Assembly (NCBI GenBank): GCA_015229165.1
Contig: JADGCD010000001.1
Location: 1 to 48,456 of the forward strand
Length of the DNA: 48,456 nt
Origin: Nitrospinota bacterium
Lineage (GTDB): Bacteria > Nitrospinota_A > UBA7883 > JADGGD01
Reading direction: 5' to 3'
Shown: in pieces, positions 1,125 to 44,471 of the stretch
Position numbering within the stretch: position 1 is the first letter of the stretch
Layout: each line of letters opens with the position of its first letter
Notes under the pieces: generated by a model
Seen by the model: only the letters and a program-made list of their open reading frames with translations
Database searches by the model: none
Told to the model about the DNA's origin: nothing
Position numbers and translations under genes: made by a program

Positions 1125-1140
1125 GGCATCATTCTCCCGT

Positions 1141-1751: not shown

Positions 1752-2081
1752 ATGGATCAATTGAAATATTTCTGGAACACGTACGATTTCGACCGGGTGA
1801 TGAGCTGGATCGGAACTGCCCTGCGCGATCCGCTGGGTACTCTCATGAATCCGTGGATTCTTGCGCCCATCGTGATCATTATCGGGCTCTTCGTTAATCA
1901 GAAGACCGCCGGTCTCGGACAAAAGCTCATTATTGGCGTCCCGGCCATCGGTTACCTCTTTATCACGCTGACTGTTCTGCACAACGACTCGATCTCGCAA
2001 CCGGGTCCGTTCATGATGGGCTTGGGCGCCATGTTGATTATCGTCGGATGGTTCATATGGGACCGCCTGATGAAAGGCTGA
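1752..2081 (+). CDS. Hypothetical small integral membrane protein
   Basis: ORF 1728-2081. I prefer the ATG at 1752, which has GGAG 6 nt upstream. The GTG at 1728 sits inside a sigma70-like TTGACT(1697)-17-TATTTA / TATAGT(1724) element. Three hydrophobic segments and high GC3. No family recognised. Confidence 0.55.
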   Translation: MDQLKYFWNTYDFDRVMSWIGTALRDPLGTLMNPWILAPIVIIIGLFVNQKTAGLGQKLIIGVPAIGYLFITLTVLHNDSISQPGPFMMGLGAMLIIVGWFIWDRLMKG

Positions 2082-2089
2082 GATTTGGC

Positions 2090-2608
2090 TTACTGATCCA
2101 TTTTGCCGAAATCTGACGGTCGAATATCGTCCAGCCATCTCTTGAACTGCTCTTCATCCTCCGGCGGTTGAACGGCGCCCTGCTTGTTCAATTCGCTGTT
2201 GTTCTTCGCCTCTTCCAGCACCGATGCCCGGACGTAGATCGGGCAACCAACCCGTAACGCAATGGCGATGGCGTCCGATGGCCTCGAATCGACTTCAATC
2301 TCCCCTGTTTCGACTTGCAATGAAAGCTTTGCGTAAAACGTATTGTCTTTCAAATCATTAACGGTGACGTGCTGAAGTGTCGCTTTAAGCGCATCCAGCA
2401 GGTTCTTGATCAGGTCGTGGGTCATCGGACGGGGGGTGACGACCGTCTCCATTTCCAGTGCGATGGCGGTCGCCTCAGGGTAGCCGACCCAGATCGGAAG
2501 GGAGCGCCCTCCGGCTTCGTCTTTGAGGATGATGATCGGCGTGTTGCTCAGGGGGTCGAAGACAAGCCCGTCCACTTTCATTCTTACCCGCTCGTCTGCT
2601 TGGCTCAT
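2090..2608 (-). CDS. Bifunctional nuclease family protein (BFN / DUF151 DNase-RNase domain)
   Basis: LPIWVGYPEATAIALE...RPMTHDL...TFYAKL...DSRPSDAIAIALR matches the DUF151/BFN signature. The start ATG at 2608-2606 (MSQADERV) overlaps the miaB stop as ATGA. Confidence 0.8.
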   Translation of the reverse strand: MSQADERVRMKVDGLVFDPLSNTPIIILKDEAGGRSLPIWVGYPEATAIALEMETVVTPRPMTHDLIKNLLDALKATLQHVTVNDLKDNTFYAKLSLQVETGEIEVDSRPSDAIAIALRVGCPIYVRASVLEEAKNNSELNKQGAVQPPEDEEQFKRWLDDIRPSDFGKMDQ

Positions 2609-7822: not shown

Positions 7823-10195
7823 CTATGACCGGGCCAGTCCGAAAATCTTCTTCTTGGGGGCGCCGACCTTTTTCCCCACCTGCCCCCGCTCCCCTTTGGG
7901 GAGTTCGGAGAACTTGAGGGTATCGTCCTTCCCCGCCTGATACATCAGGGTCACCTTGTCGTTCTTCGCCAGCAGCCGCGCCGCAAGTACCCGCTCGCCG
8001 TCATGAAGTTTGACCAGCCGCGCGCCCAGCCCCGGCCCGGAGAGTTGCGGTACCTGCTCCACATCGTACAGGAGCCCGTAGCCGTCGCTCGACAGGAGGA
8101 AAAGATTTCGCTTGGCCCCGATCAGCGTGACGGAATAGGCGGCGTCGTCCTCCCGCACGTTGGCGAGCTTGCGGCCGTTCCGGTTGGTGGCGCCCAGCGT
8201 CTCCACCGGGAAGCGGAATCCCATCCCCTGTTCGGAGACGAAAAGCAGCTCCCCTCTGCCGTCGAGGATTTCGCCGTAGATGCCGCCCACATCCTGATCT
8301 TTAAGCTGGTCGAAAAGCCCCCGCTGGGCCCGCAGGTTCGCCTCGTCGCTCTCTTTCCCTTTTTCGACCGGCGTCAAAAGTCCCATGACGGCGATGATCC
8401 GCTCCCCGTCGGAGAACTTGAAGGCGGCCTGCACCGGCTCGCCGAACCCGGTGGTCGGAGTCAAGTCGAGGGCGCGGCTCGAGTAGAACTTCCCGGCGGA
8501 GGTGAAGTAAAGCACCAGATCGCGGGTGTTCAGCGGGAGCCACGCCAGCAGCGAGTCCCCTTCCTTGAACCGGAGCGATTCGGGATTGCTCACCTGTTTC
8601 ATCCGGCGGACCCACCCCTGCCGCGAGACGATGACGTGGGTGTCTTCGTGCTGGATGAACTCCTCGGCGTCGTATTCCGGCACCACCTTCTCCGACGCCA
8701 CGATCTTCGAGCGGCGCTTGTCGCCATAGGTGGTCTTGATATCGATCAGCTCTTTGCGGACCAGGCGCCACATCAGCTTTTCGGAACCGAGCACCCGCTG
8801 AATCTCCTCCCGCTCGGCCTCTTTCTCCGCCTTTTCCTGACGGATCTTGTTGATCTCCAGCCCCACCAGCGCCGCCAGCCTAAGGTCGAGGATGGCGTTG
8901 GCCTGAATCTCGTCCAGCCCGAAATGGGCCATCAGCCCCTTGCGCGCCTCGTCCCGGGTTTTGGAGTGGCGGATGATCTTGATGGCGGTGTCCAGATCGT
9001 CGTAGATCTTCGCCAACGCTTCGAGGATGTGGAGCCGCTCCTTAATGAGTCGCAGGTCGTAGGTGAGGCGACGACCCACCACGTCGTAGCGAAAGTCGAG
9101 AAAGGCCCGGAGCATCTGCACCAAGTTGTGCCGCACCGGCGTCGCCTGCGCCGTCAGGGCGGTCAGGTTCACCGGGAAACTGTACTGAAGCTCCGTATGC
9201 TTGAAGAGATAGGCCATGAGCCGGGCCGGATCGACATTCTGCGACCGGGGCTCCAGCACGACCCGGATCTCCTCGGTCGACTCGTCGCGGACATCGACGA
9301 GATCGGGCATCTTCTTGTTGATGATCAGCTCGGCGATCTTTTCGATCAGCTTGCTCTTGTTGACCGTGTAGGGGATGGAGGTGACGACGATCTGCCATTT
9401 CCCCCGCTCCAGTTCCTCCCTGCTCCACTCGGCCTGGACCTTGACCGCGCCGCGACCGGTCTCGTAAATCTCGCGGATTTCCCGCTTGGTGGCCACGATC
9501 TCGGCCCCGGTGGGAAAGTCGGGCCCCTTGATGTGGCGCATCACGCCGGTCAGGTCGATGGTCGGCTCTTCGATCATCGCCACCAGCGCGTCAATCACTT
9601 CGTTCAGGTTGTGGGGGGGGATGTTGGTGGCGAGCCCGACGGCGATGCCGGAGGAGCCGTTGACCAGAAGGTTCGGGAACCGGGCCGGAAGGAGTTTTGG
9701 CTCCTTGTTCTGCTGGTCGTAGGTGTCGGTGAAGTCGACCGTCTCCTGCTTGAGCTCCGTCAGCAATTCGCCCGCCAGCGCCGTCAGCCGGGCCTCGGTG
9801 TACCGCATGGCCGCCGCCGAATCGCCGTCGATGTTGCCGAAGTTCCCCTGCCCGTCCACCAGCGGATAGCGCAGGGAAAAATCCTGCGCCAGACGGACCA
9901 TCGTCTCGTAGATCGCCGTATCGCCGTGGGGATGGTATTTACCGATGACGTCACCGACCACGGTGGCCGATTTCCGATAGCGGGCCTCGTGTCCCAGACG
10001 GAGCTGATGCATGGCGAAGAGGACCCGACGGTGGACTGGCTTCAGGCCGTCCCGCACGTCGGGCAAGGCGCGGGAAACGATGGTCGACAGGGCATAGGAG
10101 AGGAACCGGTTCTCCAACTCGTACTGGATATCGGTAGGGACGATCTCCCCACCGGGGCCGTCGTCGGTGTCGCTTCCTCGTCTCTTTCGTGCCAT
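7823..10195 (-). CDS. parC: Type IIA DNA topoisomerase A subunit, ParC-like (topoisomerase IV subunit A)
   Basis: Contains [23 protein letters not shown] and [10 protein letters not shown]. The C-terminal domain reads [11 protein letters not shown]...FKEGDS...GFGEP, like E. coli ParC (SQMGWVRSAK...YKAGDS...GQGEP), and has no GyrA box (QRRGGKG). Start taken at ATG 10195 (MARKRRGS), not 10297. Confidence 0.75.
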
Positions 10196-19858: not shown

Positions 19859-20926
19859 CTACGCGATGGCTTCGGCCACCAGTTCGCCCATGCGGCGGCA
19901 CCCGACGAGGCTCATCCCGGCCGACATGATGTCGCCGGTCCGGTACCTCTGGTCGAGAACCTTTGTCACCGCCTGCTCAATGTCGGCGGCGGCGTCGAGG
20001 CGTCCGAAGGAGTATTGCAGCATCATGGCCACCGAGAGGATCGTCGCCAGCGGGTTGGCCTTGTCCTGTCCGGCGATGTCGGGCGCGGAGCCGTGGACCG
20101 GCTCGTACATCCCCTTCGTCCCCGACAGCGACGCCGACGGGAGCATGCCGATGGAGCCGGTCAGCATGGCGGCGCAGTCGGAAAGAATGTCGCCGAACAT
20201 GTTGGTGGTCACGATGACGTCGAACTGTTTCGGCCACCGGACAAGCTGCATTGCGGCGTTGTCGACGTACATGTGCGAGAGGGCCACGTCGGCGTAGTCC
20301 TTGTGAACCTTGGTCACCACCCGGCGCCACAGTTCGGTGCATTCCAGCACGTTGGCCTTGTCCACCGAACAGACCTTGCTTCCCCGCTTGCGGGCGACAT
20401 CGAAGGCGACCTTGGCGATCCGTTCGATCTCCGGGGTGGTGTAGGTCAAGGTGTTGAAACCCCGCTCGGTCCCGTCGGGCAGGGTCTCGACCCCTTTGGG
20501 CTTGCCGAAGTAGATCCCCCCCACCAGTTCGCGCACCACCATGATGTCGATCCCCTCCACCACCTCGCGTTTGAGGGACGAAGCGTCCACCAGCGCCGGA
20601 TAGATTTTCGCGGGGCGAAGGTTGGCGTAGAGGTCGAGCTCGGCCCGCAGGCCGAGCAACGCCCGCTCCGGGCGCACCGCATAATCGAGCGGTTCCCATT
20701 TGGGGCCGCCGACGGCGCCCAGGAGAACCGCGTCGGCCTCCTTGGCAAGTTTCAACGTCGCGTCGGGTAGAGGGGTACCGCTCTCGTCGTAGGCGGTTCC
20801 GCCGACATTGGCTTTTTCCGTTTCAACTTTCAGCCCGTATTTCCGGTCGATCTTTTCAAGGACGGAAAGGGCCGCGACGACCACTTCCTGGCCGATCCCA
20901 TCTCCCGGCAGAACCGCAATCTTCAT
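19859..20926 (-). CDS. leuB: 3-isopropylmalate dehydrogenase
   Basis: [25 protein letters not shown] and NMFGDILSD motifs. 355 aa. Confidence 0.93.
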
Positions 20927-21065
20927 CGCTTGGTGCGCTCCAGAATGGCAAGGGTAAATGAAGCGAGCATATTAGACGGATGGGGCGTCCCGTTCAACCA
21001 TATTGTTGGCCATCGAAGCGACCGGCGGAAAAATCAGACCTTTAACGCACAATAAATGATCTATT

Positions 21066-21076
21066 TGCGCCAATTA
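21066..21076. promoter_or_regulatory. Left arm of an 11-bp inverted repeat TGCGCCAATTA (partner at 21569-21579)
   Basis: tttGCGCCAATTAcctg compared with the reverse complement of 21563-21579, tatGCGCCAATTAggtg, gives 14/17 identity. A degenerate third copy, GACGCAAATTAGG, lies at 21109-21121. Confidence 0.3.
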
Positions 21077-21223
21077 CCTGCAATTGTTCTATAACTTTAC
21101 TTTAAGTTGACGCAAATTAGGTTGCAGTTTCGGTTCTTTTGGTCTAACCTTTTGTCAGTGGTCAATTGTCCGGTACATGCGAGAAATCGTCAAGGCGCAT
21201 CTGTGGCTCAACCAGTGAATGAA

Positions 21224-21427
21224 ATGAAGACTCCCAATCACGTCAAGGAGTATCGGGACAATCTGATGATGTCCAAGGCCGAGCTTGCGCGCAAGGCCGG
21301 AATCTCGGTTCAGACCCTCAACCGGATCGAACGGGGCGAGGTATGCCGCGTAGACACCCAGCGGAAGATTCTTGAAGCCCTCGGGCTGACCGTCGAAGAC
21401 AAAGACAAAATTTTTACCCCTGCCTGA
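21224..21427 (+). CDS. Small XRE-family helix-turn-helix transcriptional regulator
   Basis: 67 aa. MSKAELARKAGISVQTLNRIERGE is a classic HTH_3 motif. It lies in a visibly AT-richer stretch (about 20930-21590). The start could also be the GTG at 21215. Confidence 0.75.
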   Translation: MKTPNHVKEYRDNLMMSKAELARKAGISVQTLNRIERGEVCRVDTQRKILEALGLTVEDKDKIFTPA

Positions 21428-21456
21428 CCTCCCCCCTTTCTCTATATCCCTCCCCG

Positions 21457-21462
21457 TATAAT
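21457..21462 (+). promoter_or_regulatory. TATAAT box within CCCTCCCCGTATAAT
   Basis: The same C-rich context plus CGTATAAT recurs at 23985-24001. It lies 123 nt upstream of the 21585 start. Confidence 0.3.
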
Positions 21463-21568
21463 TGCGGGATAGTTCCGTCCTGTCCCATGCTCTGACCAAA
21501 TATCGCCTGCGCCAAAGAAATGACTTGCGGCATCATCGTAATAGATGTAAATTTATCTAAATTTCACC

Positions 21569-21579
21569 TAATTGGCGCA
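21569..21579. promoter_or_regulatory. Right arm of the inverted repeat TAATTGGCGCA
   Basis: Exact reverse complement of 21066-21076. It ends 5 nt before the ATG of the lytic transglycosylase gene. Confidence 0.3.
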
Positions 21580-21584
21580 TAATT

Positions 21585-23900
21585 ATGGGCGCATATCCCT
21601 GCCGGAATGCCTTTGCGACCGTCTGCCTCCTCGTCCTCGCGGCGACGGTAGGTTCCGAAGAGGCCTTTGCCCGCCCCGCTCCGGAGGAGCAGGGACAATC
21701 GTCAACCGCCCCCGGATTCCTTGCCGGACGGGAAATGACCATCCCCGATTCGGGGGTTTTTAAGGTCGAACCGGCGCTTCGCCCTCGAGTCGAGTTCTGG
21801 AAAGGGATCTACAGCCGCTACACCACCGGCCAGGTGGTGATCCACGACCGTGACAACATGGGGGTCACCTTCGAGGTTGTCGATCTCAAGGGGCCGGGGA
21901 ACCGTGGGCGGCGCCATCTGGTGCGCGACCGGGTCGCCTACTACCGCCGCATTCTTACCCATCTCTGGAAAGAGAAAGGGGAAGCGAACACTCCCGAAGA
22001 ACGACGGATCGTGGCCGCCTACGCCGAAGTCCCCGGCAGCTATCACAAGTATAAGCGGGCCGCCGACAACATTCGGGGCCAACTCGGTCAGGCCGACCGT
22101 TTCCGCGAAGGGCTTATCCGCTCCGGGCGTCACTTGGCCCACATCCAGAGCGTCCTCAAATCGTACGGCGTGCCGGTCGAACTGTGCGCCCTTCCCCATG
22201 TCGAGTCATCGTTCAACTACAAGGCCTACTCCTCCGTCGGCGCCGCCGGTATTTGGCAGTTCATGCGGGGGACCGGTCGTCTCTTTATGCACGTCGATTA
22301 CAGCATCGACGAGCGGCGCGACCCGATCATCGCCACCGAGGGGGCTGCCCGCCTGCTCAAGAGCAACTACGCGGAGCTGGGCTCCTGGCCGTTGGCTATC
22401 ACCGCCTACAACCACGGTGTCAACGGCATGAAGCGGGCCAAGAAGCGATATGGCGACGATATCGCCACGATCATCGACCAGCACCAGAGCCGTGCGTTCG
22501 GTTTCGCTTCCAAGAACTTCTACACCGAATTTTTAGCCGCCCTCGATGTCGCCCGCAACTACAAAGAACATTTCGGCGACCTTGCCTTCGAACCCCCCTT
22601 TGTCTATGACGAGGTTCGGCTCGACCGGCACATCCCCGCTCGCGCTATCACCACCGTCGCCGGCATCGACACCGATACCCTGCGTGAATACAACCTCGCC
22701 CTGCGCGACCCGGTCTGGAGCGGTTCCCGCCACATTCCTAAAGGATATGTTCTCAAGGTTCCCGCCGGGCGTGGGGACACGGTCGTGGCTTCACTCTCGA
22801 ACCTTCCTTCCAGCTACGCTGCGGCCTCGCCCAAAGGGGGCGGCTCATCGCATGTTGTTAGGCGGGGAGAGTCACTTTCCACCATCGCCGCCCGCTATCG
22901 GGTGTCGGTCGCCTCTCTGAAAGCGGCGAACCGGCAGAAGAAGAACTCCATTCGGATCGGCCAAAAGCTTCGCATTCCTGGCGACAACGGCAATGTCGAG
23001 CAGGCGGTCTACGTCGCATCCACGAGAACCGAATCGGCCCCGGCCCCGGTCGCTGAACAGGTCGTCGCGCAGAACGTGACCCACCCTGCCCTGATGGAGA
23101 CTGCGCAGACCGGCGCGGCTGTCCATGTGGTCCGTCGCGGGGAGACCCTCTATCGGATCGCCCGCGCAAACAAGATGTCGGTCGCCCGCCTCAAAAACCT
23201 GAACAGCCTTTCGCGGGGAACGATTTATCCCGGCCAGCGTCTGGTCATCGACGGAGACGCCCCCCTGCCGAAGGTGGCGTCGGTCGCCCCGGTGGCGGTC
23301 AAAGTGCCGCCCCTTGACACCCGCACCGAGGAATCGGCGTCCGGCGCCGAAGGGGATGCGCTCGATCCCAAGTTGACCGAAGCGGCCACCGCCGGGGACC
23401 AATCGCCGGTCATCGACCGGGACGGGGAGTTCGTCGAAATCAACGGGCGCCGCTTGCAGGTTTCCCGTGGCGACTACATTGTCCGTTCCGTCAAGGGGCG
23501 GACCGGAGAGATTGTCATCGACGCCGAAGAGACCCTCGGCCATCTGGCGGAGTGGCTTGAAACCAGCGGCACGGCCATACAGCAGCTCAACCGCTCCAAC
23601 CTGCGCCGCAGCATGCGGATCGGGATGCGGGTCCGCATCCCCTTGGGGAAAGTTTCGGCGGAGACCTTCACCGCCCGGCGGCTGGAATACCACATGCAAT
23701 TGCTCGAAGACTTCTTCCAGGCCTACAAGGTCGGGGGGGAGAAAACCGTCAAGATCCGGCGCGGCCAGTCCCTCTGGGAGCTGTGCCAGAACGAGGAAGA
23801 GACTCCCCTGTGGCTGGTCCGGCTCTACAACCGCGAGGCCGACCTGAACAGCCTTCGTCCGGGAGACACCCTGACCATCCCGGTGGTGGAGAAAAAATAG
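21585..23900 (+). CDS. mltD: Secreted lytic murein transglycosylase with LysM repeats (MltD-like)
   Basis: Signal peptide, an SLT catalytic region (ESSFNYKAYSSVGAAGIWQFM...ITAYNHG), and at least three LysM modules (HVVRRGESLSTIAARY..., HVVRRGETLYRIARAN..., VKIRRGQSLWELC...). Confidence 0.85.
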   Translation: MGAYPCRNAFATVCLLVLAATVGSEEAFARPAPEEQGQSSTAPGFLAGREMTIPDSGVFKVEPALRPRVEFWKGIYSRYTTGQVVIHDRDNMGVTFEVVDLKGPGNRGRRHLVRDRVAYYRRILTHLWKEKGEANTPEERRIVAAYAEVPGSYHKYKRAADNIRGQLGQADRFREGLIRSGRHLAHIQSVLKSYGVPVELCALPHVESSFNYKAYSSVGAAGIWQFMRGTGRLFMHVDYSIDERRDPIIATEGAARLLKSNYAELGSWPLAITAYNHGVNGMKRAKKRYGDDIATIIDQHQSRAFGFASKNFYTEFLAALDVARNYKEHFGDLAFEPPFVYDEVRLDRHIPARAITTVAGIDTDTLREYNLALRDPVWSGSRHIPKGYVLKVPAGRGDTVVASLSNLPSSYAAASPKGGGSSHVVRRGESLSTIAARYRVSVASLKAANRQKKNSIRIGQKLRIPGDNGNVEQAVYVASTRTESAPAPVAEQVVAQNVTHPALMETAQTGAAVHVVRRGETLYRIARANKMSVARLKNLNSLSRGTIYPGQRLVIDGDAPLPKVASVAPVAVKVPPLDTRTEESASGAEGDALDPKLTEAATAGDQSPVIDRDGEFVEINGRRLQVSRGDYIVRSVKGRTGEIVIDAEETLGHLAEWLETSGTAIQQLNRSNLRRSMRIGMRVRIPLGKVSAETFTARRLEYHMQLLEDFFQAYKVGGEKTVKIRRGQSLWELCQNEEETPLWLVRLYNREADLNSLRPGDTLTIPVVEKK

Positions 23901-28750: not shown

Positions 28751-29686
28751 TCAGATGTTGGCGATCTCGCTGGCGTCCCTTTTCTTGACATGGGCGATGG
28801 CGGCCAGCTTGATCTTTGGCCCAAGAATCTTGTTGACCGTGTCGAGCCCCTGATAGAGCTTCAGGTCCTCCTTGTCCACCACGTCGACGGCGCCGATCTC
28901 CTGCGCCCGGAAGCGCATCTTGCTCCCCTTTTGCGCCACTGACGAGACGATGATCACCGGTTTGGGATAGTGGACCATCAGCTTCTTGAGAAACGAGACC
29001 CCGTCCATTTTCGGCATGATGATGTCGAGCGTGATCACGTCCGGGTCGAGTTCGAGTATCTTCGTGCGGGCCTCGAAGGGGTCTTCCGCCTCCCCCACCA
29101 CTTCGATCTCCGGGTCGAGGGAGAGGGCCTTGCGCAGCACCCCCCGGACCGTGGCGGAGTCGTCGACGATCAGCGTCCGGATGCGCCGCCCGGCCAGATC
29201 CCTTTTCTTTGCCTCCTGATGGAGTTTGGTCTCCGACTTGGCGATGTCGCGCACCTGAACAACGCCGGTGTCGTTGTCGAAGTAGATCTTTCGTCCCCCG
29301 CCGCCGACCTGTTGTTCGACGACCGCGACCCCCAGCTCCTTGAGCGTCCGCAAGGCCATCTCGACGTTCTGTTTCCCGAGGTTCTCCTTTTCGAGGCTTC
29401 CGGCGGTCGAGTCTCCCCCACCGTAGATTTTCGCTTCGAGAACGGCGGTGTTCCGGTCGACCTTGAGCATCGCCTCCACCAGCTTGCGGGTGGCGACATC
29501 CCCCGCCTTTCCCGGCGCGTCCCCCGGCGCCCCGGTGGGAAGGAGAAAGTGGTTCATGCCGCCGAACTTTTTGTCCTTGTTGAACAGGCATACCGCCACC
29601 GAGGACCCGAGGAGGGTTGAGATGACGGTCGGTTGCCGGGTGACAGTTATCTCACCGGGCAAGAGAAACACCTGCTTCTTTTCCAT
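28751..29686 (-). CDS. cheD: CheD-like domain fused to a C-terminal CheB-type receiver (REC) domain
   Basis: Residues 1-~148 align with CheD (VISTLLGSSVAVCLFN...GGMNHFLLP...AKIYGGG...). Residues ~168-285 form a receiver very like the CheB N-terminus (IRTLIVDDSATVR, DPFEAR, LDPDVITLDIIMPKMDG, IIVSS, GAVDVVDK). Confidence 0.85.
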   Translation of the reverse strand: MEKKQVFLLPGEITVTRQPTVISTLLGSSVAVCLFNKDKKFGGMNHFLLPTGAPGDAPGKAGDVATRKLVEAMLKVDRNTAVLEAKIYGGGDSTAGSLEKENLGKQNVEMALRTLKELGVAVVEQQVGGGGRKIYFDNDTGVVQVRDIAKSETKLHQEAKKRDLAGRRIRTLIVDDSATVRGVLRKALSLDPEIEVVGEAEDPFEARTKILELDPDVITLDIIMPKMDGVSFLKKLMVHYPKPVIIVSSVAQKGSKMRFRAQEIGAVDVVDKEDLKLYQGLDTVNKILGPKIKLAAIAHVKKRDASEIANI

Positions 29687-29695
29687 CAGATAATC

Positions 29696-31849
29696 CTATC
29701 GCTGAAATTGCTGGACGACGCCGTCGATGGAGAGGATAAGCGCCATATTCCGGCCGTCCAGAATGGAGACGCCGTCGAAGGCCGAAGGCTCCTTCGTGCG
29801 GAGATTGAGCTGCTTGTAGACGATCTGCCGCTGCCCGATCAGCTCGTCCACCACCAGGCAGGCGACGGTTCCTTTCGACTCCACCAGCAGGCAGATGGCC
29901 TCGGTGATGTCGGGGAAGCGGGGGGGGATGTCGAACAGCCGACTCAGGCGGATCACCGGATAGATGTTCCCCCAACGGCGGACCACTTCGCCCTTCCCTT
30001 CGACGGTGGAGACATCCTCCCGCTTGACCCGGAACGACTCCCGCACCTGCTCGGCGGCCACCAGAAAGACCGATTTGCCCAGGGCCAGCGTCAGCCCCAG
30101 CTTGATCCGCGTGGTATAGGCCAGCGGCAGGCGGATTTCGATCTTGAGACCCCCGGTCCGCTTGTTGGAAAGGGAGAGGCTCCCCCCCATCTCCTTGACC
30201 GACGAGAGGAGGACATCCATGCCGACCCCACGGCCGGAGGTCTCGGTGATCTGGGCCGCCGTGGAGAAGCCGGGAAGCAGCATCAGCTCAAGCACCTCCC
30301 GTTCGGCCATCATGCCGCATGCCTCGCGGGAGACGAGCCCCTTCTCCACCGCCTTGTCGCAGATCCGGGTCGGGTCGGCGCCCCGCCCGTCGTCTTCAAC
30401 CACCAGCAGCACCTGGTTGTCCCGGGCGATGGCGGAGATCGAGATTCGTCCTTCCGCCGGCTTTCCCTTTTCCATCCGCTCGTCCGGGGTCTCGATGCCG
30501 TGGTCGCAGGAGTTGCGGACGCAATGGACCAGCATGGTCTCGATCTTGTCCAGCAGGCTCTTGTCGACCTCGGTGTCACCGCCGGTGGCGGAGAGGGAGA
30601 TTTCCTTGCCGCTGTTCTTGGCGATCCCCCGCACGATGGAGGGAAGCTTCGAGTAGGCCCGCTCGAAAGGGGCCTTGCGGATCTGGTAGAGGACGTGCTG
30701 GAGTTGGGTCGACAGCTCGCCGAACGCCTGGTTGGTGTTCTTCAGGTCGGTGGTGAGCCCTTCGGTCTGCTTCTGTTCGAGCTTGCGCTGGATGATGTTG
30801 AACAGTTCGTTTATAGTGATCAGCTCGCCCACATGATCGATCAGCTCGTCGAGGAGCGACTCGTTGATCCTTACCGTCTTTGTCTTTACCGCCGATTCGC
30901 CGCCGGTTGTGGCGCTTTTTCCCTCTTCGACCCGGGCGACGGGAGGGGGGGCTTTCTGTGGTTGCACTTCCGACAAGCCGCTGTCGGCGTAGACCTGCAG
31001 GGCCTCTTCGATGGAGATCACCATCATTTCGTCGATGCCGATCTCGTCCTGATAGAACATCTCGAAGTCGTCTTTGAACTCCTGCAATCCTTCCACCGGG
31101 TCTTCCAGCTCGGCCGACAGGTGTTTTGAAAGGAGCCCGTTGACGGCGTTCATGATCCGTTCGAAGGGGTTGTCGACGAAGGCGCCAGACTTCGCCTCCT
31201 CCACCACCGCCCGCAGGTCGGCGTACTCCTCGGTGACGTCCAGCGTATCGAAGATCCAGCGGACGCCACCTACGGACGCCCCTTTCTTCTGCTCCCGCAC
31301 CAGATCGGGGGCGTAACGGTTGATCAGCTCGTACAGCTCCTTCACCGGATGGTCGGTCTCTTCGAGGAGCCCTTCCTCCCGCATCCGCGCGAAGTAGGAG
31401 ATCAGCTCCCCCCGGAGAACCTCCATCTTGCTTTCGTCGGAATGGACGACGGTCTTGCTTTGCAGTTGTTCGAAGTAGGCCTGCTCATCGTCCCGGATCG
31501 CCACCCCCATCCCTTCGACCCGCAGTCGCCCGGTGATGGCTTTCAGGAAATCGGCGCCGTCGAGAATGAAGTGGACCAGGTCGCGGTCGACGGCGATGGT
31601 TCGTTCGCGGACGAGGTCAAGGAAGCTTTCGAACTGGTGGCAAAAGGTCTGGACCTGGGTAAGGCCGAAGAAGGCGGAGTTTCCCTTGATTGAGTGGGCG
31701 CACCGGAAGATGCCGTGGATGGCCTCCATGTCGTTGGGGTTGGACTCCAACGAAATGGAGAACTGCTCCATCTCGGAGATCATCTCTTCCGATTCTTCGA
31801 GGAACTCCTGATAGAGCTCTTCTTTCGAATCGTCGTCGGTGTCGGACAT
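29696..31849 (-). CDS. cheA: Chemotaxis histidine kinase CheA (P1 Hpt - long atypical linker - P3/P4 - P5 CheW-like)
   Basis: Hpt FRCAHSIKGNSAFFG (His codon 31696-31694), the HATPase G-boxes (GRGVGMDVL...GGSLSL), and a C-terminal CheW-like domain. Start taken at ATG 31849 (MSDTDDD). The track start at 31954 is a GTG that would read through the promoter-like AT box. Confidence 0.9.
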   Translation of the reverse strand: MSDTDDDSKEELYQEFLEESEEMISEMEQFSISLESNPNDMEAIHGIFRCAHSIKGNSAFFGLTQVQTFCHQFESFLDLVRERTIAVDRDLVHFILDGADFLKAITGRLRVEGMGVAIRDDEQAYFEQLQSKTVVHSDESKMEVLRGELISYFARMREEGLLEETDHPVKELYELINRYAPDLVREQKKGASVGGVRWIFDTLDVTEEYADLRAVVEEAKSGAFVDNPFERIMNAVNGLLSKHLSAELEDPVEGLQEFKDDFEMFYQDEIGIDEMMVISIEEALQVYADSGLSEVQPQKAPPPVARVEEGKSATTGGESAVKTKTVRINESLLDELIDHVGELITINELFNIIQRKLEQKQTEGLTTDLKNTNQAFGELSTQLQHVLYQIRKAPFERAYSKLPSIVRGIAKNSGKEISLSATGGDTEVDKSLLDKIETMLVHCVRNSCDHGIETPDERMEKGKPAEGRISISAIARDNQVLLVVEDDGRGADPTRICDKAVEKGLVSREACGMMAEREVLELMLLPGFSTAAQITETSGRGVGMDVLLSSVKEMGGSLSLSNKRTGGLKIEIRLPLAYTTRIKLGLTLALGKSVFLVAAEQVRESFRVKREDVSTVEGKGEVVRRWGNIYPVIRLSRLFDIPPRFPDITEAICLLVESKGTVACLVVDELIGQRQIVYKQLNLRTKEPSAFDGVSILDGRNMALILSIDGVVQQFQR

Positions 31850-31903
31850 CGGTGTCGGGGAGACCTTTGAAGCGGCAGTGGGGAATACGTCGCGATCCGC
31901 AAA

Positions 31904-31911
31904 ATTATAAT
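31904..31911. promoter_or_regulatory. ATTATAAT element readable as TATAAT on both strands in the cheA/tat divergent region
   Basis: aaaATTATAATac. TATAAT is at 31906-31911 on the plus strand and at 31909-31904 on the minus strand. Confidence 0.3.
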
Positions 31912-31985
31912 ACACTTGGGTGACAAGTGAAACGATGGTGACGCGCCCCCCCACGCAGGGCCCCCTTTCCGCAAGGAGTCAAGCG

Positions 31986-37757: not shown

Positions 37758-39008
37758 ATGCGACCCTCTCATCCCGCCGAAAGCGACGCCCCTTCGCGGG
37801 AGGCGTTGCTGGACGACATCGCCGAGGCGCTTGCCTCTCTAAACGGGGGCGCCCTTCCGCTGGAGAAACGGCTCGACCTCCTCTTGCGCCAGACCCTTTC
37901 GGCCCTCGGCGCCGAACGGGGGTCCATCATGCTTCTGGAGGGGGATCGTCTGGTCGTCCGGGCGGCCACCGATCCTGCGCTGATCGGCGTCGGGCGCACG
38001 CTTGACGAAAGCGCCGTATCGGCCACCGCCCTGCGGGAGCGGAGGGCGCTCCTCATCGGCAAGATCGACGAAGAGAGCAGGGAGATCGATTTCTACACCG
38101 ACGGCCGCTACAAGACCGCCACCCTGTTGACCCTGCCGATCCTCTTCCAAGACGAGCCGTTGGGAGTCATCAACGTCACCGACAAGGTAAGCCGCCGCTC
38201 CTTCCGCAAGAGCGACGAAACAATCCTCTCCATGTTCGCCGGGATGACCCTTGCCGCCCTCATGGGGAAAGAGGCCCGTGAGCAACGGGACGCCCTGGCC
38301 CGCGCCAACGAAGAGCTGACCCGGATGCAGGCCTTCAGGGAGCAGTTGATCTCCATGATCGTCCACGACCTGAAAGGGCCGACCGGCGAGATCATCGCCA
38401 ACCTGAACATGCTGGCCGACGCTCCGCTGGACGAGTTCGGCAAAGAGCTATTGGACAACTCCACCGCCGCCGGAGAGAGCCTGCTCCGGATGATCATGAA
38501 CATTCTCGACGTCGGCAAGATGGAAGAGGGACGCTTCGTTCTCAACCGGTCGGTGGTCGAACTGACCCCCTTCCTCTCCGACGCTGCACGCCGTCTTGCC
38601 CTCATGGCCCGGCGGGAGGAAAAGCAGGTCGACACCCGTCTGCCCGACGCCCCCCTCACGGCGCTGATCGACCGGCAGGTAGTCGAACGGGTTCTCTGGA
38701 ACCTTCTTTCCAACGCCAACAACCACACCGGTTCCGGGGACCGGATCACCCTTTCGGCGGAAGGGGACGAGCGGACCGTCGTCTTCCGGGTGAGCGACAG
38801 CGGCGCCGGAATCGAAGCCGACGACCTCCCCCACCTCTTCGACCGCTACTACCGGGGAAAAGGCTCCGGTCGCTACAGCGTCGGGCTGGGGCTTGCCTTC
38901 TGCCAGATGGCGGTGGAGGCCCACGGCGGAAGCATCACCGTCGAGAGCCGCCGGGGAGAAGGGGCCACCTTCATCGTCACCCTTCCGTCCAACCCGGATC
39001 ATCCGTGA
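37758..39008 (+). CDS. Cytoplasmic GAF-domain sensor histidine kinase
   Basis: GAF-like N-terminus, H-box ISMIVHDLKGPTGEI, N/G boxes (LLSNANNHT, DSGAGI, GLGLAFC). No TM segment and no adjacent response regulator. Confidence 0.88.
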   Translation: MRPSHPAESDAPSREALLDDIAEALASLNGGALPLEKRLDLLLRQTLSALGAERGSIMLLEGDRLVVRAATDPALIGVGRTLDESAVSATALRERRALLIGKIDEESREIDFYTDGRYKTATLLTLPILFQDEPLGVINVTDKVSRRSFRKSDETILSMFAGMTLAALMGKEAREQRDALARANEELTRMQAFREQLISMIVHDLKGPTGEIIANLNMLADAPLDEFGKELLDNSTAAGESLLRMIMNILDVGKMEEGRFVLNRSVVELTPFLSDAARRLALMARREEKQVDTRLPDAPLTALIDRQVVERVLWNLLSNANNHTGSGDRITLSAEGDERTVVFRVSDSGAGIEADDLPHLFDRYYRGKGSGRYSVGLGLAFCQMAVEAHGGSITVESRRGEGATFIVTLPSNPDHP

Positions 39009-39439
39009 CCTTGACCCCGTTTCTCGCCGAAAGCCCCGACGCCACATTCCGGGCGGGGAGGGAACTGGGCGCCCGCCTTCGCGGGGGGGAGACCCTCCTC
39101 CTTGTCGGACCGCTGGGCGCCGGGAAAACCACCTTCACACAGGGGCTCTGCCGGGGGCTTGGCCTCGACGAACGCACGCCGGTCCGCTCCCCCTCCTTCG
39201 CCCTCGTAAACGAGTACCGTGGGGGACGGTTACCCATCCGCCACGCCGATCTCTATCGGCTGGACGACCCCGGCGAGATGGCCGATCTGGGGCTCTTCGA
39301 CGAGACCGACGACACGGTCGTCATCGTCGAGTGGGCCGACCGGCTCGGCGTCCCCCCGGGGGGAAAGCTGATCCGGGTCCACATCGCCATCGGCGAAGGG
39401 GAAGGACGCATTATCACCATCGACGAAGGGGACGCATGA
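39005..39439 (+). CDS. tsaE: tRNA t6A37 biosynthesis ATPase TsaE
   Basis: LLLVGPLGAGKTTFTQG, SPSFALVNEY, HADLYRL. The GTG start overlaps the kinase stop as GTGA. Confidence 0.88.
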   Translation: MTLTPFLAESPDATFRAGRELGARLRGGETLLLVGPLGAGKTTFTQGLCRGLGLDERTPVRSPSFALVNEYRGGRLPIRHADLYRLDDPGEMADLGLFDETDDTVVIVEWADRLGVPPGGKLIRVHIAIGEGEGRIITIDEGDA

Positions 39440-39993
39440 GAGCCCTTCTGCTGGCCCTGATCGCCGGAGTGGCCGGATTCACCCTCTGGTGGCTTCTTGC
39501 CAACGGCCCCGAGGAGACACCCGACGGGCCCGGTATCCCGGCGCCGGTCCAAAACGGCGCGGGGGGGATCTCGCTGGGGGAGATCCGGATTGTCGAGCGG
39601 CGGGAGAGCCGCATCCTGTTCGAATTGATGGCAAGCTCCGCCTCCATCAGCGATGATCAGACCGACGCCTCGCTCTTCATGTTTTCCCTGCTCGCCTACC
39701 CCGAGGGGGGGGAGCCGCTTACGATCGTGGCCAATGTGGGGGAGCTGCGCAACAACCGCACCGAAATCGCCGCCAAAGGAAACGTCCTCGTCACCGACGG
39801 GCAGGGGCGGGCGTTACTGACCGAGTCGATGGTCATGTATGGCCGGGGGGAGCGGTTCGAGACCGATGACCGGGTTCGGGCGCTCGGTCCCAACTTTGTC
39901 ATCACCGGCGTCGGTATGGTGGCGTATCCGGCCAGGAAAACAGTAGAATTGAAGTCCGACGTTACAGCAGTCTTCATGCCGGAGAATCAATGA
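39436..39993 (+). CDS. lptC: LPS export system protein LptC
   Basis: N-terminal anchor helix plus a beta-jellyroll-like region. It sits immediately upstream of lptA-lptB and is ATGA-coupled on both sides. It is the C-terminal half of track ORF 38893-39993. Confidence 0.72.
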   Translation: MRALLLALIAGVAGFTLWWLLANGPEETPDGPGIPAPVQNGAGGISLGEIRIVERRESRILFELMASSASISDDQTDASLFMFSLLAYPEGGEPLTIVANVGELRNNRTEIAAKGNVLVTDGQGRALLTESMVMYGRGERFETDDRVRALGPNFVITGVGMVAYPARKTVELKSDVTAVFMPENQ

Positions 39994-40865
39994 ACCGTCT
40001 CGCCCGCCTCCTGACTGGCCTCGGGCTGGCCGTGTTGTCGCTCTCCGGAGTTCCCGCCCACGCCGTCGGTGCGACCCATAACGACACGGCGTCGCTGGTG
40101 GACGCCGACGACGAAAAGGCCCCGCTCAAAGTCACCGCCGACCGGATGGTCTCCGACCGGGAGAAGGGGGTCATCGAGTTCACCGGCTCGGTTGACGCCG
40201 TCAAGGGAAGCCTTCGGGTGGTGGCCGACAAGATCCTGGTCTTCGCCGACGACGACGGGAGCGACTTCACCCAGATCAGGGCCACCGGGTCGGTACGGAT
40301 CACCAAGGGAAACAAGGTCGCCACCGGCGAACAGGCTGACTATTTCCGTGAACGCAAAACCATCATCCTGACCGGCGCCCCCACCCTCGACGACGGCAAG
40401 AGCGTCGCCACCGGCGAAAAAGTGGTCTACAACTTCCTCACCGAAGAGATGACCCTGCTGGGGGGGACCGGGGTCGGCGGACAGAACGGTCGGGCCACCG
40501 TCACCCTGTTCGCCACCAAGGACAACCAGATCGTGCCGGGGCCGACGCCCCCTCCCCCGTCACCGAAGCCGACTCCGGCGCCGGTGGCGGTCAAACCGGC
40601 GCCCCCGGTGGCTTTGACGCCGGGCTATACCGTTCAGGTGGCCGCCTTGCGGGACAAGGCGCAGGCCCGGCGGTTCGTCGACCGGCTATTGTCCAAGGGA
40701 TATGACGCCCGTCTCCTCACCGACCAGAGCCGGGGGACCGCCGTTCACCGGATTCGGGTGGGACGATTCGCCACCGAAAGCGAGGCACGGATGATGAGGG
40801 AGCGGCTGCTGGCCGAAGAAGGGATCGAAGGGCTCACCCTCCGCTGCGAGAACGGCTGTGATTAA
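39990..40865 (+). CDS. lptA: LptA (OstA-like periplasmic LPS transport protein) fused to a C-terminal SPOR domain
   Basis: Signal peptide and OstA_N-like repeats ([11 protein letters not shown]...[23 protein letters not shown]...ATG..ADYF...IILTG). These are followed by a Pro-rich linker and SPOR ([30 protein letters not shown]...[14 protein letters not shown]). Confidence 0.8.
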
Positions 40866-41586
40866 AACCCTCAGAGCGGAAGACATTTCCAAGAGCTACA
40901 AAGGACGGACCGTCGTCAATCAAGTCTCCTTCGCCATGACCAACCGGGACATCGTGGGGCTGCTCGGCCCCAACGGCGCCGGGAAGACCACCACGTTTTA
41001 CATGGTCGTCGGCCTTACCCCCTGCGACCGGGGAGGGGTCTATCTGGACGATCTGGACATCACCCATCACGCCATGTACCAGCGCGCCCGGATCGGCATC
41101 GGCTATCTGCCGCAGGAAGCCTCCATCTTCCGCAAGTTGACGGTCATGGAGAACCTCCTCGCCATTCTTGAGACCATGCCGCTGACCCGTTTCGAGCGGG
41201 AGACCCGTGCGAAGCAGTTGCTGGACGAATTCGGCATTCTTCACTTGGCCGACAACAAGGCCATGGCCCTCTCCGGCGGCGAACGGCGGCGGCTGGAGAT
41301 CGCCCGCACTCTCTCCACCGAACCATCCTTTGTCCTGCTCGACGAACCGTTCGCTGGAATCGACCCGATCGCCGTGGCCGACATCCAGAGCCTGGTGCTG
41401 GCCCTGCGGGAGCGGGGTATTGGCATTCTTATCACCGACCACAACGTCCGGGACACCCTGGGCATCTGCGACCGGGCGTACATTCTCAGCGCGGGGAGCA
41501 TTATCGAGGAAGGAACCCCCGAGATGATCGCCTCCTCGGAACGGGCCAGAAATATCTACCTTGGCGAGAATTTTACGTTAAAATGA
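40858..41586 (+). CDS. lptB: LPS export ABC transporter ATP-binding protein LptB
   Basis: [40 protein letters not shown]. 242 aa with a GTG start overlapping the lptA end. Confidence 0.92.
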
Positions 41587-41636
41587 GCTTGCAAGGATCG
41601 TGCGAACCATAATTAGCGAAGGATAGTACCGGCCCC

Positions 41637-43163
41637 ATGGGTATGGAAATGAAGTTGCAGATGCGCTTGTCGCAGCGTCTGGTCATGACGCCGATGTTGC
41701 AACAGGCCATAAAGCTCCTTCCCATGACGCGGCTCGAACTTGTTCAGGCCATTCGGCAGGAACTGGAAGAAAATCCGATGCTTGACGAGCTTCTGGAAGA
41801 TGACCAGGAGCAGGACGCCGAACGGGAAGAGCGGGACGACCAGGACGACGAGTCCGACCCGGGGGACAACATGGTCGATACCCTCGACCGGCAGGACGGC
41901 GTCACCACCGACCCACCCGAGACAAAGTTCGAAGAAGACTCATCTCTCGGTGACAAGAACGACACCGACACCCGCGACGAAATCGATTGGGACGCCTATT
42001 CCCAAGAAGATCTCTACGAAGGGGGAACCGGTGAGGGGTACGAAGAGCGCCCCTCCCTCGACAACACCCTCAAGCAGGGAGAAGGGCTCGAAAGCCATCT
42101 GATGTGGCAACTTTCCTACTCGGCCGTCACCGACGAGGAGCGCCGTCTGGGGGAGATCATCATCGGCAACCTGAACGACGAAGGGTATCTGGCCTCCGAC
42201 CTTGCGTCGCTCGCCGACGCCGCCGGAGTCTCCACCGAAGCGATGGAGGATGCCCTCATCCTCGTCCAAAGCTTTGATCCTGCTGGGGTGGCAGCCCGCG
42301 ACCTGAAGGAATGCCTCCTGATCCAGGTCATCGCCAACGGCTTCAAAGGCTCCATCGTCCACGAGCTGGTCCGGGACCACCTGGAGCATCTGGATGAGCG
42401 CAACTTCCCCAAGTTGGCGAAACAACTGGACTATGAGATCGACGACATCGTCGACGCCATCAGGACCATCCGGGAGTTCGATCCGAAACCGGGCCTCCCC
42501 TATTCCTCGGAAGCCCCCCACTACATCACGCCGGACCTCTTCGTGGTCAAAGTGGACGACGATTATCAGGTCTTCCTGAACGACGAGGGGATGCCCCGCC
42601 TCAGGATCAATCCGGTTTACCAGACGATTCTCAAGAACAAAGATACCCGCAGCGAAACCGAAAAACAGACCCGGGAGTACCTCGACAACAAATACCGCTC
42701 CGCGCTCTGGATGATCAAGTCGATCGAGCAACGCCGCCAGACCATGCTGAAAGTCGGGCGGTCCCTCTGCACGTTTCAGCGCGAATTCCTGGACAAGGGG
42801 ATCAACTACCTGAAGCCACTGATACTCAAAGACGTAGCCGACGATATCGGCATGCACGAGTCGACCATCTCCCGCGTCACGACCAACAAATACATTCACA
42901 CTCCCCAGGGACTGTTCGAGTTGAAGTTCTTCTTCCACTCGTCGGTCGGTTCCTATCTGGGGAACGACATGTCTTCGGTCCGGGTCAAGGAGATGATCAA
43001 ACAACTGGTCAAGGACGAGGATTCGGCAAAGCCTCTCACCGACGACCAGATTGTCGCCGCCCTCATGGCAAAGGATGTGAAAATCGCCCGCCGAACCGTG
43101 ACGAAGTATCGAAAAGAGTTGAATATCTCTTCCACTTCCAAACGCAGGAAGCTATACTTATAA
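41637..43163 (+). CDS. rpoN: RNA polymerase sigma-54 factor
   Basis: Region I LVMTPMLQQAIKLL, an acidic region II, and the RpoN box ARRTVTKYR near the C-terminus. Confidence 0.95.
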   Translation: MGMEMKLQMRLSQRLVMTPMLQQAIKLLPMTRLELVQAIRQELEENPMLDELLEDDQEQDAEREERDDQDDESDPGDNMVDTLDRQDGVTTDPPETKFEEDSSLGDKNDTDTRDEIDWDAYSQEDLYEGGTGEGYEERPSLDNTLKQGEGLESHLMWQLSYSAVTDEERRLGEIIIGNLNDEGYLASDLASLADAAGVSTEAMEDALILVQSFDPAGVAARDLKECLLIQVIANGFKGSIVHELVRDHLEHLDERNFPKLAKQLDYEIDDIVDAIRTIREFDPKPGLPYSSEAPHYITPDLFVVKVDDDYQVFLNDEGMPRLRINPVYQTILKNKDTRSETEKQTREYLDNKYRSALWMIKSIEQRRQTMLKVGRSLCTFQREFLDKGINYLKPLILKDVADDIGMHESTISRVTTNKYIHTPQGLFELKFFFHSSVGSYLGNDMSSVRVKEMIKQLVKDEDSAKPLTDDQIVAALMAKDVKIARRTVTKYRKELNISSTSKRRKLYL

Positions 43164-43169
43164 GCTTCC
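43147..43169 (+). other. Hairpin spanning the rpoN stop codon
   Basis: GGAAGCT-atacttata-AGCTTCC with 7-bp arms. The TAA stop (43161-43163) spans the loop/right-arm junction. Confidence 0.25.
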
Positions 43170-43189
43170 GATTCACAAGGGAGTTGATT

Positions 43190-43516
43190 ATGCAGATCAC
43201 CATCACCGGCCACAACATTGAAGTTACCCCGGCCTTGCGCGAGTACACGGAAGAAAAAGTCGCCCGCGTCCGCCGGTTCCTGAATACCACCCTCAGCGCC
43301 CACGTTATCCTGAAGGTGGAAAAGCTCGACCAGATCGCCGAGGTCTCCATCCACGCCAACGGCGCCGACCTGCACGGCACGCACAAGGACGAGAACATGT
43401 ACGCCGCCATCGACACGGTGATGGACAAGATTGACCGGCAGGCGAAGAAGATCAAGGGAAAAGGTGAAGCCAAGAAAAAAGGGGCGCCCTCGGCCTCCGA
43501 AGCTCTCGGCTCGTAA
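43190..43516 (+). CDS. hpf: Ribosome hibernation promoting factor (short HPF/YfiA type)
   Basis: MQITITGHNIEVTPALREYTEEKV...MYAAIDTVMDKIDRQ. GGGAG RBS before the ATG at 43190. Confidence 0.9.
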   Translation: MQITITGHNIEVTPALREYTEEKVARVRRFLNTTLSAHVILKVEKLDQIAEVSIHANGADLHGTHKDENMYAAIDTVMDKIDRQAKKIKGKGEAKKKGAPSASEALGS

Positions 43517-43546
43517 GACGGACCGGTTGCGCCGCCTGGCGGACGA

Positions 43547-44011
43547 ATGAGAATTCTCGATTTTCTCGCGCCTGAGAACGTGGTCGCCCCGCTGGCGGCC
43601 ACCGACAAGGAGGGGATCCTCCGGGAGCTGTGCGCCACCCTGACCCGCAACGGGGCGCTCGAAAATCCCGACATGGCGCTCGAGGCGGTCATGACCCGCG
43701 AGCGGCTCGGTTCCACCGGCATCGGCGAGCAGGTCGCCATCCCCCACGCCAAGACCCGGGGCGCCTCCCGCCTGGCGGGCGCATTCGGGTTGACCTCCGA
43801 CGAGGTCGATTACGATGCGGTCGACGACCAGCCGGTTCGGCTGGTCTTTCTGCTAGTCGCCGGGGAAGACGCCACCAGCGCCCACCTGAAGGCCCTCGCC
43901 CGCATCTCCCGCATGCTCAAAAACCGCTCGTTCCGGGACCGGGCGCGCGAAGCGACCTCCGCCGAGCAGCTCTTCGCCCTGGTGCGGGCCGAAGACGAGG
44001 CGCTGGGGTAA
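43547..44011 (+). CDS. ptsN: PTS EIIA-Ntr
   Basis: RERLGSTGIGEQVAIPHAK with the phosphorylatable His. 154 aa, in the canonical position after rpoN-hpf. Confidence 0.9.
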   Translation: MRILDFLAPENVVAPLAATDKEGILRELCATLTRNGALENPDMALEAVMTRERLGSTGIGEQVAIPHAKTRGASRLAGAFGLTSDEVDYDAVDDQPVRLVFLLVAGEDATSAHLKALARISRMLKNRSFRDRAREATSAEQLFALVRAEDEALG

Positions 44012-44024
44012 AGGAGAACGAACG

Positions 44025-44471
44025 ATGCCCGCTCCCTCCCACGACCGGCAGACCGGCTACCTGATCATCGCCCACGGCGCGTTGGCGCAGGAGTTTCTCG
44101 CCTCCCTTCGCTTTATCGCCGGCGGCGACGTCTGCCGCAACTTCCGGGCGGTGGCCATCGACCATGCCGTCGATGTCGACCGGGCCCGGGCGATGGTAGA
44201 CGAGGCGGTTCGGCAGATCGCCGGACCGGACGGAACCATCATTCTCACCGACCTCTTCGGCGGCGCCCCCTCCAACATCGCCCTCTCGCTTCCGGCCGGA
44301 ACGCCGGTCGAGATCGTCGCCGGAGTCAACCTCCCCATGCTCCTGAACGCGACCATTATCGACGACCGGCTCTCCCGCCTCGAGAAGGCCCAGCGCCTGA
44401 AGGCCTACGCCCAGAACAACATCTTCTTGGCCAGCGACGTTCTGGCGGGAAGAGCGGCCAAGAACGGATGA
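44025..44471 (+). CDS. PTS EIIA component, mannose/fructose family
   Basis: GYLIIAHGALAQEF (active His), LTDLFGGAPSN and IVAGVNLPMLL match the ManX N-terminal IIA domain. Confidence 0.8.
   Translation: MPAPSHDRQTGYLIIAHGALAQEFLASLRFIAGGDVCRNFRAVAIDHAVDVDRARAMVDEAVRQIAGPDGTIILTDLFGGAPSNIALSLPAGTPVEIVAGVNLPMLLNATIIDDRLSRLEKAQRLKAYAQNNIFLASDVLAGRAAKNG

Follow-up and report, generated by a model that had tools for sequence, protein, structure and literature searches.

How is the adaptation protein CheD kept under control in bacteria that have no CheC? The question is raised by two genes on the minus strand of a 48,456-bp contig from a Nitrospinota metagenome-assembled genome (MAG), the contig being analyzed as a whole (the window): cheA and, 9 nt beyond its stop codon, a gene for a 311-amino-acid (aa) protein in which a CheD domain is joined to a CheB-type receiver (REC) domain, here called cheD-REC. 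CheD is, to our knowledge, the least understood of the chemotaxis adaptation proteins; we know its control by CheC and phosphorylated CheY (CheY~P) only from Bacillus and Thermotoga, and we know of nobody who can say how it is regulated in the many bacteria that lack CheC. A CheD wired to a CheB-type receiver and to a CheA of its own would supply a simple answer, namely, control by direct phosphorylation. As judged from the sequences, it is most likely that phosphorylated CheA (CheA~P) would phosphorylate Asp221 of CheD-REC and thereby control the action of CheD on chemoreceptors, a reading that we hold with moderate confidence.

The fusion of CheD with a CheB-like receiver, first recognized in a preliminary description of this DNA from its letters, is upheld by Pfam, with PDB and Foldseek in agreement. 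CheD (PF03975) matches residues 55-146 with 59.5 bits (cut-off, 25), and Response_reg (PF00072) matches residues 172-273 with 69.9 bits (cut-off, 30.2). The best NCBIfam match is the CheB N terminus, which aligns residues 168-304 with profile positions 3-139 of 357 (E = 7e-41), and the next matches are CheD equivalogs, all of them under their cut-offs (e.g., 109.8 versus 223). Among sequences in the PDB, CheB (6ymz/1a2o) aligns with residues 167-305, through helix alpha5, and Thermotoga maritima CheD (2f9z_C) aligns with residues 10-152. An AlphaFold2 model of the 311-aa protein, built from 49 homologues, is confident in both domains (mean predicted local distance difference test score, 87); in Foldseek, its CheD half fits 2f9z_C with a template modeling (TM) score of 0.86 and a root mean square deviation of 1.8 Å, and its receiver half fits the T. 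maritima CheB receiver 3t8y with a TM score of 0.90.

Asp221, previously picked out as the phospho-acceptor, does align with the phospho-acceptor of CheB in the PDB sequence alignment, and D175, D176, D221, S248, and K272 are invariant across 120 homologues. By these residues, CheD-REC is a genuine response regulator. Pfam finds no CheB_methylest (PF01339) match in the 311 aa, so the protein lacks the CheB catalytic domain, and as only 66 bp separate its stop codon from cca, a convergent gene on the other strand, there is no room for an esterase remnant. The C-terminal tail is itself conserved, ending in Ile in 98 of 120 homologues and being acidic at position -5 in 114 of 120, and the linker Ser, S151, is kept in 119 of 120. 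From this conservation, the tail may be a docking peptide and the linker a signal-transmitting helix.

The partner kinase is a CheA by all four of its Pfam domains, each of which exceeds the gathering cut-off, and CheA structures in the PDB match residues 11-103 and 324-712; the coordinates of the two genes and the CheA domains given in the preliminary description are confirmed. The protein scores under the NCBIfam equivalog cut-offs for CheA (311.8 versus 950 and 307.8 versus 793). No P2 domain is detectable by Pfam and PDB searches in residues 105-320, a 215-aa spacer between P1 and P3 that is at most moderately conserved within Nitrospinota, whereas the P5 domain is conserved there. The reading frame is open over 29696..31954 (-), with an upstream GTG at 31954, but use of this longer open reading frame (ORF) is unlikely because a sigma70-like promoter candidate (31931-31904) sits inside it; the candidate is purely a consensus match, with one found versus 0.4 expected in shuffled sequences. 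The cheA stop codon, TAG (29698-29696), is followed by a 9-nt spacer, GATTATCTG, and by the cheD-REC ATG (29686). Since an AGGA ribosome-binding site overlaps the stop codon, the sequence suggests translational coupling of the two genes. We think it somewhat probable that cheA and cheD-REC form a bicistronic operon encoding a dedicated kinase/response regulator pair of the chemosensory type. The features of the locus are collected in Table 1.

Table 1. Features of the cheA/cheD-REC locus, in window coordinates
Feature	Coordinates	Strand	Details
cheA	29696..31849	-	717 aa from ATG 31849; P1-P3-P4-P5
CheA P1 (Hpt), aa 11-96	31562..31819	-	Pfam; phospho-His52 in CAHSIKG, codon 31696-31694
CheA P3 dimerization (H-kinase_dim), aa 324-387	30689..30880	-	Pfam
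CheA P4 ATPase (HATPase_c), aa 438-577	30119..30538	-	Pfam, PDB match
CheA P5 (CheW-like, receptor coupling), aa 585-714	29708..30097	-	Pfam, PDB match
cheA stop TAG plus 9-nt spacer	29687..29698	-	AGGA ribosome-binding site overlapping stop
cheD-REC	28751..29686	-	311 aa plus stop; Pfam, NCBIfam, PDB, and fold matches
CheD domain, aa 1-155	29222..29686	-	Pfam, PDB, fold; Thr24 and His46 kept; Ser29 at nucleophile position
Helical interdomain linker, aa 152-167	29186..29233	-	Conserved; S151, K160, K161, and R167 nearly invariant
CheB-type receiver including alpha5, aa 168-304	28775..29185	-	D175, D176, D221 (codon 29026-29024), S248, K272
C-terminal tail [ED]-[IVL]-x-x-I plus stop codon	28751..28774	-	Conserved; no esterase remnant
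sigma70-like promoter candidate TTCACT-16-TATAAT	31904..31931	-	10/12 match, ~55 nt upstream of cheA ATG

Is the pair peculiar to this contig? A word-indexed search found full-length homologues, at least 120 in number and 303-326 aa long, with 49-84% identity; all have CheD plus Response_reg, all share one end point with the same conserved tail, and most are from Nitrospinota MAGs and many independent metagenomes. A species-level scan with one genome per GTDB species matched 172 stretches, and the titles of the best 80 loci, which were inspected, name Nitrospinota (~30), Omnitrophota, Desulfarculia, Adiutrix, Thermodesulfobacteriota, Planctomycetota (Phycisphaerae and Sedimentisphaerales), Hydrogenedentota, Verrucomicrobiota, Lentisphaerae, and Bdellovibrionales. 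In addition, 1.84 billion cluster representatives were searched exhaustively with HMMER, which gave 146 matches at E ≤ 1e-30; classification of the top 150 with local hidden Markov models (HMMs) yielded 46 CheD-REC proteins in 46 clusters at 50% identity. The domain pairing, taken at first for an unusual one, is thus not rare.

Of the 77 loci whose upstream sequence is long enough for a call, ~58 have a CheA-like gene as the immediate upstream neighbor on the same strand, across at least 8 phylum-level labels, so the pairing seen in the window holds in related genomes. The genes that flank the pair vary between loci, which makes the pair itself the conserved unit. The closest relative, at 84% identity, lies on an independent contig in the same synteny, argS-SulP-tatA-cheA-cheD-REC. 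Control of CheD-REC by CheA is therefore a reading supported at the sequence level, by conserved adjacency across phyla and by the invariant receiver residues. Neighboring ORFs were typed with targeted HMMs; single-linkage clustering was uninformative, because the receiver domains drew all ORFs together into a single cluster.

The Nitrospinota pair is usually found by itself. A different setting is found in Omnitrophota, where the order is CheY-MCP(CZB)-CheW-CheA(855 aa)-CheA'(510 aa, no P5)-CheD-REC, MCP being a methyl-accepting chemotaxis protein, and continues downstream with CheR-CheD-CheB-CheY-CheX. Being embedded in a full che cluster, this pair is tied to MCP-based signaling. In Planctomycetota and Lentisphaerae, the pair lies beside MCP, CheW, CheR, CheB, and a second CheA. 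The label "orphan module" given to the window pair is therefore apt locally but not for these phyla, with pairs in or beside complete che clusters. Nor does it describe Nitrospinota in full, as some of their MAGs have extra che genes near paralogues of CheD-REC and chemotaxis genes are reported for the Nitrospinae (PMC5029188).

The kinase just upstream of CheD-REC in clusters of the Omnitrophota type is CheA-like and 510-540 aa long (L035, 8463-9995; L028, 8375-9991; L034, 8353-9918; L038, 8409-9971; L063, 6315-7895). That of L035 has Hpt and ATPase domains and no P5 CheW-like domain by Pfam, and the other four are without the P5 region by alignment. The short kinase adjoins a full-length CheA of 855-889 aa in L035, L028, L034, and L038 and a 607-aa CheA-like ORF in L063. 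The stand-alone CheD proteins of such clusters (L035, 11819-12319; L028, 11845-12381; L029, 4084-4599; L038, 11819-12331) carry SVCGNGV in place of the canonical TLLGSCV, which puts Gly at the canonical nucleophile position and Cys two residues before it, and in these clusters the canonical triad is kept by the fused CheD only.

In a distance tree of CheD-REC, the protein groups follow phyla, and a Nitrospinota-specific duplication leads to paralogues without CheA (L006, L013, L014, and L015), some of which adjoin CheR-like genes. The CheA-less CheD-REC of L013 lies near a divergent 377-aa CheR-domain protein (8748-9881), and a CheY-CheA-(REC protein)-CheX group is found 1 kb downstream of that of L014 (11953-16050). 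At L041, also in Nitrospinota, the CheA-less CheD-REC has a CheR-STAS-metallo-beta-lactamase/HisKA kinase upstream (2768-3943) and a stand-alone CheD directly downstream (9259-9741).

Where might such a protein have come from? The architecture CheD-REC-CheB_methylest, in proteins of 500-545 aa, accounts for 58-59 of the top 150 representatives, and REC-CheB_methylest-CheD for one. In the five tri-domain proteins tested, all three domains were confirmed by Pfam; these relatives keep Cys/His/Thr and the receiver residues. They are common in Bdellovibrionota (Bdellovibrio bacteriovorus and relatives; e.g., P0137, P0140, P0154, P0166, and P0209), annotated merely as "CheB." In B. bacteriovorus CP160490.1 (L086, 7504-11560), a compact operon reads cheA(578 aa)-cheW-like(254 aa)-cheD/cheB, neither MCP nor CheR lying within 10 kb of it; the tri-domain gene, like cheD-REC, thus follows a cheA. 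This partner CheA is far shorter overall than that of the window, at 578 versus 717 aa.

The tri-domain proteins (~520 aa) share CheD, linker, and CheB-type receiver with the window protein, at 35-43% identity over residues 4-300, whereas the latter stops at the end of receiver alpha5, exactly at the CheB receiver/linker boundary, and has no methylesterase domain. Given such sisters, the 311-aa protein is built like a CheD-CheB fusion minus the esterase, and the earlier characterization of it as a CheB with CheD in place of its esterase fits. Most di-domain proteins cluster apart in a neighbor-joining tree, adjacent to the tri-domain group. From the sequences, then, the window protein looks like a CheD-CheB fusion that is without the esterase, the direction of change being inferred.

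Comparison with the known adaptation proteins places CheD-REC between them. Its receiver is closest to that of CheB (1a2o, 6ymz, and 3t8y) by both sequence and fold (~43% identity, alpha5 included); it is presumably phosphorylated by CheA, and the two proteins have the logic of phospho-controlled receptor modification in common. Unlike CheB, CheD-REC is without CheB_methylest, and its effector is N-terminal and of an unrelated fold, that of CheD, so that the name "CheB" given by the Joint Genome Institute is wrong for the window protein. With stand-alone CheD (T. maritima 2f9z), it has the fold, 36% identity, and the Thr and His in common. The CheD of B. subtilis, which binds receptors and activates CheA, is taken away through CheC in a manner that depends on CheY~P, which places it in a phospho-feedback loop (PMC3513319). 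CheD-REC instead has a phospho-sensor fused in cis and no CheC nearby, does not keep the "MF" segment, in the window copy has Ser as nucleophile, and falls under every NCBIfam cut-off for CheD equivalogs. By these sequence features, the window protein is neither a CheB, lacking the esterase, nor a canonical CheD equivalog. CheV, a CheW-REC protein, is a CheA substrate that serves adaptation and, like CheD-REC, carries its receiver C-terminally, behind a chemotaxis accessory domain; CheD-REC differs in having a CheD enzyme rather than a CheW adaptor at its N terminus and a receiver of the CheB rather than the CheV type. It is conceivable, and we put it forward tentatively, that CheD-REC with its dedicated CheA makes up a third, hitherto unrecognized, phosphorylation-dependent branch of receptor adaptation beside CheB and CheV, in at least 8 mostly uncultured phyla, replacing control by CheC/CheY~P. 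The Nitrospinota pair may represent a minimal two-gene module detached from the classical che clusters.

In the mechanism that we propose, CheA, coupled through P5 to chemoreceptors that would, together with CheW, be encoded elsewhere in the genome, would autophosphorylate His52, and CheA~P would pass the phosphoryl group to Asp221 of CheD-REC. Phosphorylation of the receiver would, through the linker helix, change how CheD engages the receptor signaling domain. In the 117 of 120 members that keep Cys-His-Thr, the effect might be on Gln deamidation/Glu demethylation; alternatively or additionally, it might be on kinase-activating binding as described for B. subtilis CheD. The outcome would be direct phospho-feedback on receptors within one polypeptide, in place of the CheC/CheY~P route and in parallel with CheB and CheV.

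Several observations weigh against this mechanism. Ser29 occupies the nucleophile position of the window copy, as seen in both the PDB and the homologue alignments, and the CheD half of the Ser-bearing lineage has a ratio of nonsynonymous to synonymous substitution rates (dN/dS) that is 2 to 3 times that of Cys-bearing pairs. CheD-REC occurs without an adjacent CheA in ~19 loci, and in ~20 Nitrospinota loci with adjacent cheA the pair has no MCP, CheW, or CheR at a distance of up to 10 kb. The window itself, searched by Pfam on ~40 likely genes and by local HMMs on six-frame ORFs of at least 70 aa (the panel being MCP signaling domain, CheW, CheR, CheB catalytic domain, CheX, and REC), holds no MCP, CheW, CheR, CheB esterase, or CheX, which bears out the earlier remark that no other che gene lies in the 48 kb. 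The CheD-REC receiver is the sole receiver domain that the HMMs find there, Pfam and the HMMs find no MCP-CheW-CheY core encoded with the kinase inside the window, and no CheC is present among the Pfam-scanned genes. The predicted TM score of the AlphaFold2 model is 0.55, so the relative orientation of CheD and receiver is undefined, and the model accordingly lends structural support to no particular mechanism of regulation. Finally, CheD-REC does not keep the "MF" segment, which in canonical CheD contacts CheC and is required for activity in B. subtilis (PMC3513319).

The T. maritima triad C27/H44/T21 corresponds to Ser29, His46, and Thr24 in the window protein, which thus lacks the full triad. 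The codon is TCG (29602-29600), two changes from any Cys codon. Among the homologues, the nucleophile Cys is present in 117 of 120, with Thr24 and His46 invariant, and Ser in three, namely, the window protein, the relative that is 84% identical to it, and the distant P0077, all of them paired with CheA. As the nucleophile Cys is replaced, deamidase activity of the window copy is doubtful, and the proposal of a CheA-controlled CheD deamidase stands here in part: conserved adjacency and the invariant receiver residues speak for the control, the substitution against the enzyme. In B. subtilis, chemotaxis owes little to the deamidase activity of CheD when this is set against the protein's binding functions (PMC3513319), which makes a binding-only or weakly active CheD plausible for the window copy. 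To judge from its residues, that copy probably acts chiefly through regulated binding, or else as a Ser-His hydrolase that is much slower.

The same substitution would suit a CheD that is dead, leaving a CheA-associated receiver that drains phosphoryl groups, as additional CheYs or CheV do, or a structural component of the array, in either case without regulated modification of receptors. Ser29 agrees with such a phosphate sink or scaffold, as do the extreme conservation of the receiver and the faster evolution of the CheD half: between the window protein and its closest relative, the CheD half has 73% identity and a dN/dS of 0.17, versus 96% and 0.03 for the receiver half, while three Cys-bearing pairs have CheD-half dN/dS values of 0.05-0.09. 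However, 0.17 still denotes strong purifying selection, under which, by this estimate, the CheD half of the Ser lineage is still held. Moreover, Thr24, Asn45, and His46 are kept, and a Ser beside His can serve as a nucleophile. With Cys in all but three of the relatives, the family at large is more than a sink. We consider a sink or scaffold unlikely and control of CheD action by phosphorylation of Asp221 the better account.

A rather less likely alternative is that the Nitrospinota pair is a repurposed two-component system independent of MCPs, in which CheD deamidates or binds a non-MCP target and so serves another function in the cell; we know of no non-MCP substrate of CheD. The lack of MCP, CheW, and CheR around the pair in the window and in the ~20 loci would be expected of such a system, as would its variable flanks of housekeeping genes and the CheA-less paralogues, which adjoin CheR-like methyltransferases with STAS and other kinases, not MCPs. 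Against this, the receptor-coupling P5 domain is conserved in Nitrospinota CheA, the same pair is embedded in MCP-containing clusters of other phyla, che genes are commonly scattered, and Nitrospinae reportedly have chemotaxis genes, flagellar and chemotaxis genes having been reported for the core genome of Nitrospina/Nitromaritima (PMC5029188). For N. gracilis, 97 genes fall in the COG class "cell motility" (PMC3578206).

An assembly or frameshift artefact joining cheD to a truncated cheB, for which nothing speaks but the unusual architecture and the esterase of the sister proteins, is ruled out: the fusion is genuine, with at least 120 independent full-length homologues that have the same end in many samples and from many assemblers, 80 loci in species-representative genomes, a conserved C-terminal tail, 66 bp to the convergent cca, and an 84%-identical gene in the same synteny on an independent contig.

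The window protein is entered in NCBI, at 100% identity, as "response regulator [Nitrospinae bacterium]," elsewhere the family labels are "CheB" or "CheD," and the rules of MiST would class CheD-REC simply as "CheD" (PMC2808908). With such labels, chemosensory censuses miscount adaptation enzymes, which affects Nitrospinota, Planctomycetota, Omnitrophota, and Bdellovibrionota. In the full-text literature, we came upon neither a paper that names a CheD-receiver or CheD-CheB fusion, although a mention in Wuichet & Zhulin 2010 is possible, nor a functional study of the di-domain or tri-domain form, in line with the preliminary description, which named no characterized example. The sole lead is an isolated cheA adjoining cheD in Thiomicrospira crunogena (PMC2829493). 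CheD-REC is a widespread, conserved, often misannotated, and apparently uncharacterized protein of familiar parts and predictable logic rather than a new type of system. Its di-domain, tri-domain, and Cys-to-Ser forms amount to a natural experiment that could separate the enzymatic from the binding role of CheD.

The neighbors of the pair in the window are rho, cca, tatA/B, SulP, and argS by Pfam, which confirms the cca, rho, tat, and SulP genes of the preliminary description. Scans of the window for tRNA and Rfam families gave no match. A GAF-HisKA-HATPase histidine kinase at 37758-39008, without any response regulator in the window, has a stop codon that overlaps the start of tsaE (39005-39439). 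Two stretches are low in G+C (versus ~0.63), and neither has a tRNA or Rfam match: 940-2138 (0.51), which holds ORFs without Pfam match at 940-1386 (+) and 1734-2138 (-), and 20926-21585 (0.54), which is a gap of 660 bp on the upstream side of a gene for a LysM/SLT transglycosylase. The region 39439-44471 has the usual order lptC-lptA-lptB-rpoN-ptsN(EIIA-Ntr), followed by EIIA-Man and enzyme I of the phosphotransferase system (PTS). Unusually for an LptA, the one encoded here (39990-40865) has a SPOR domain at its C terminus.

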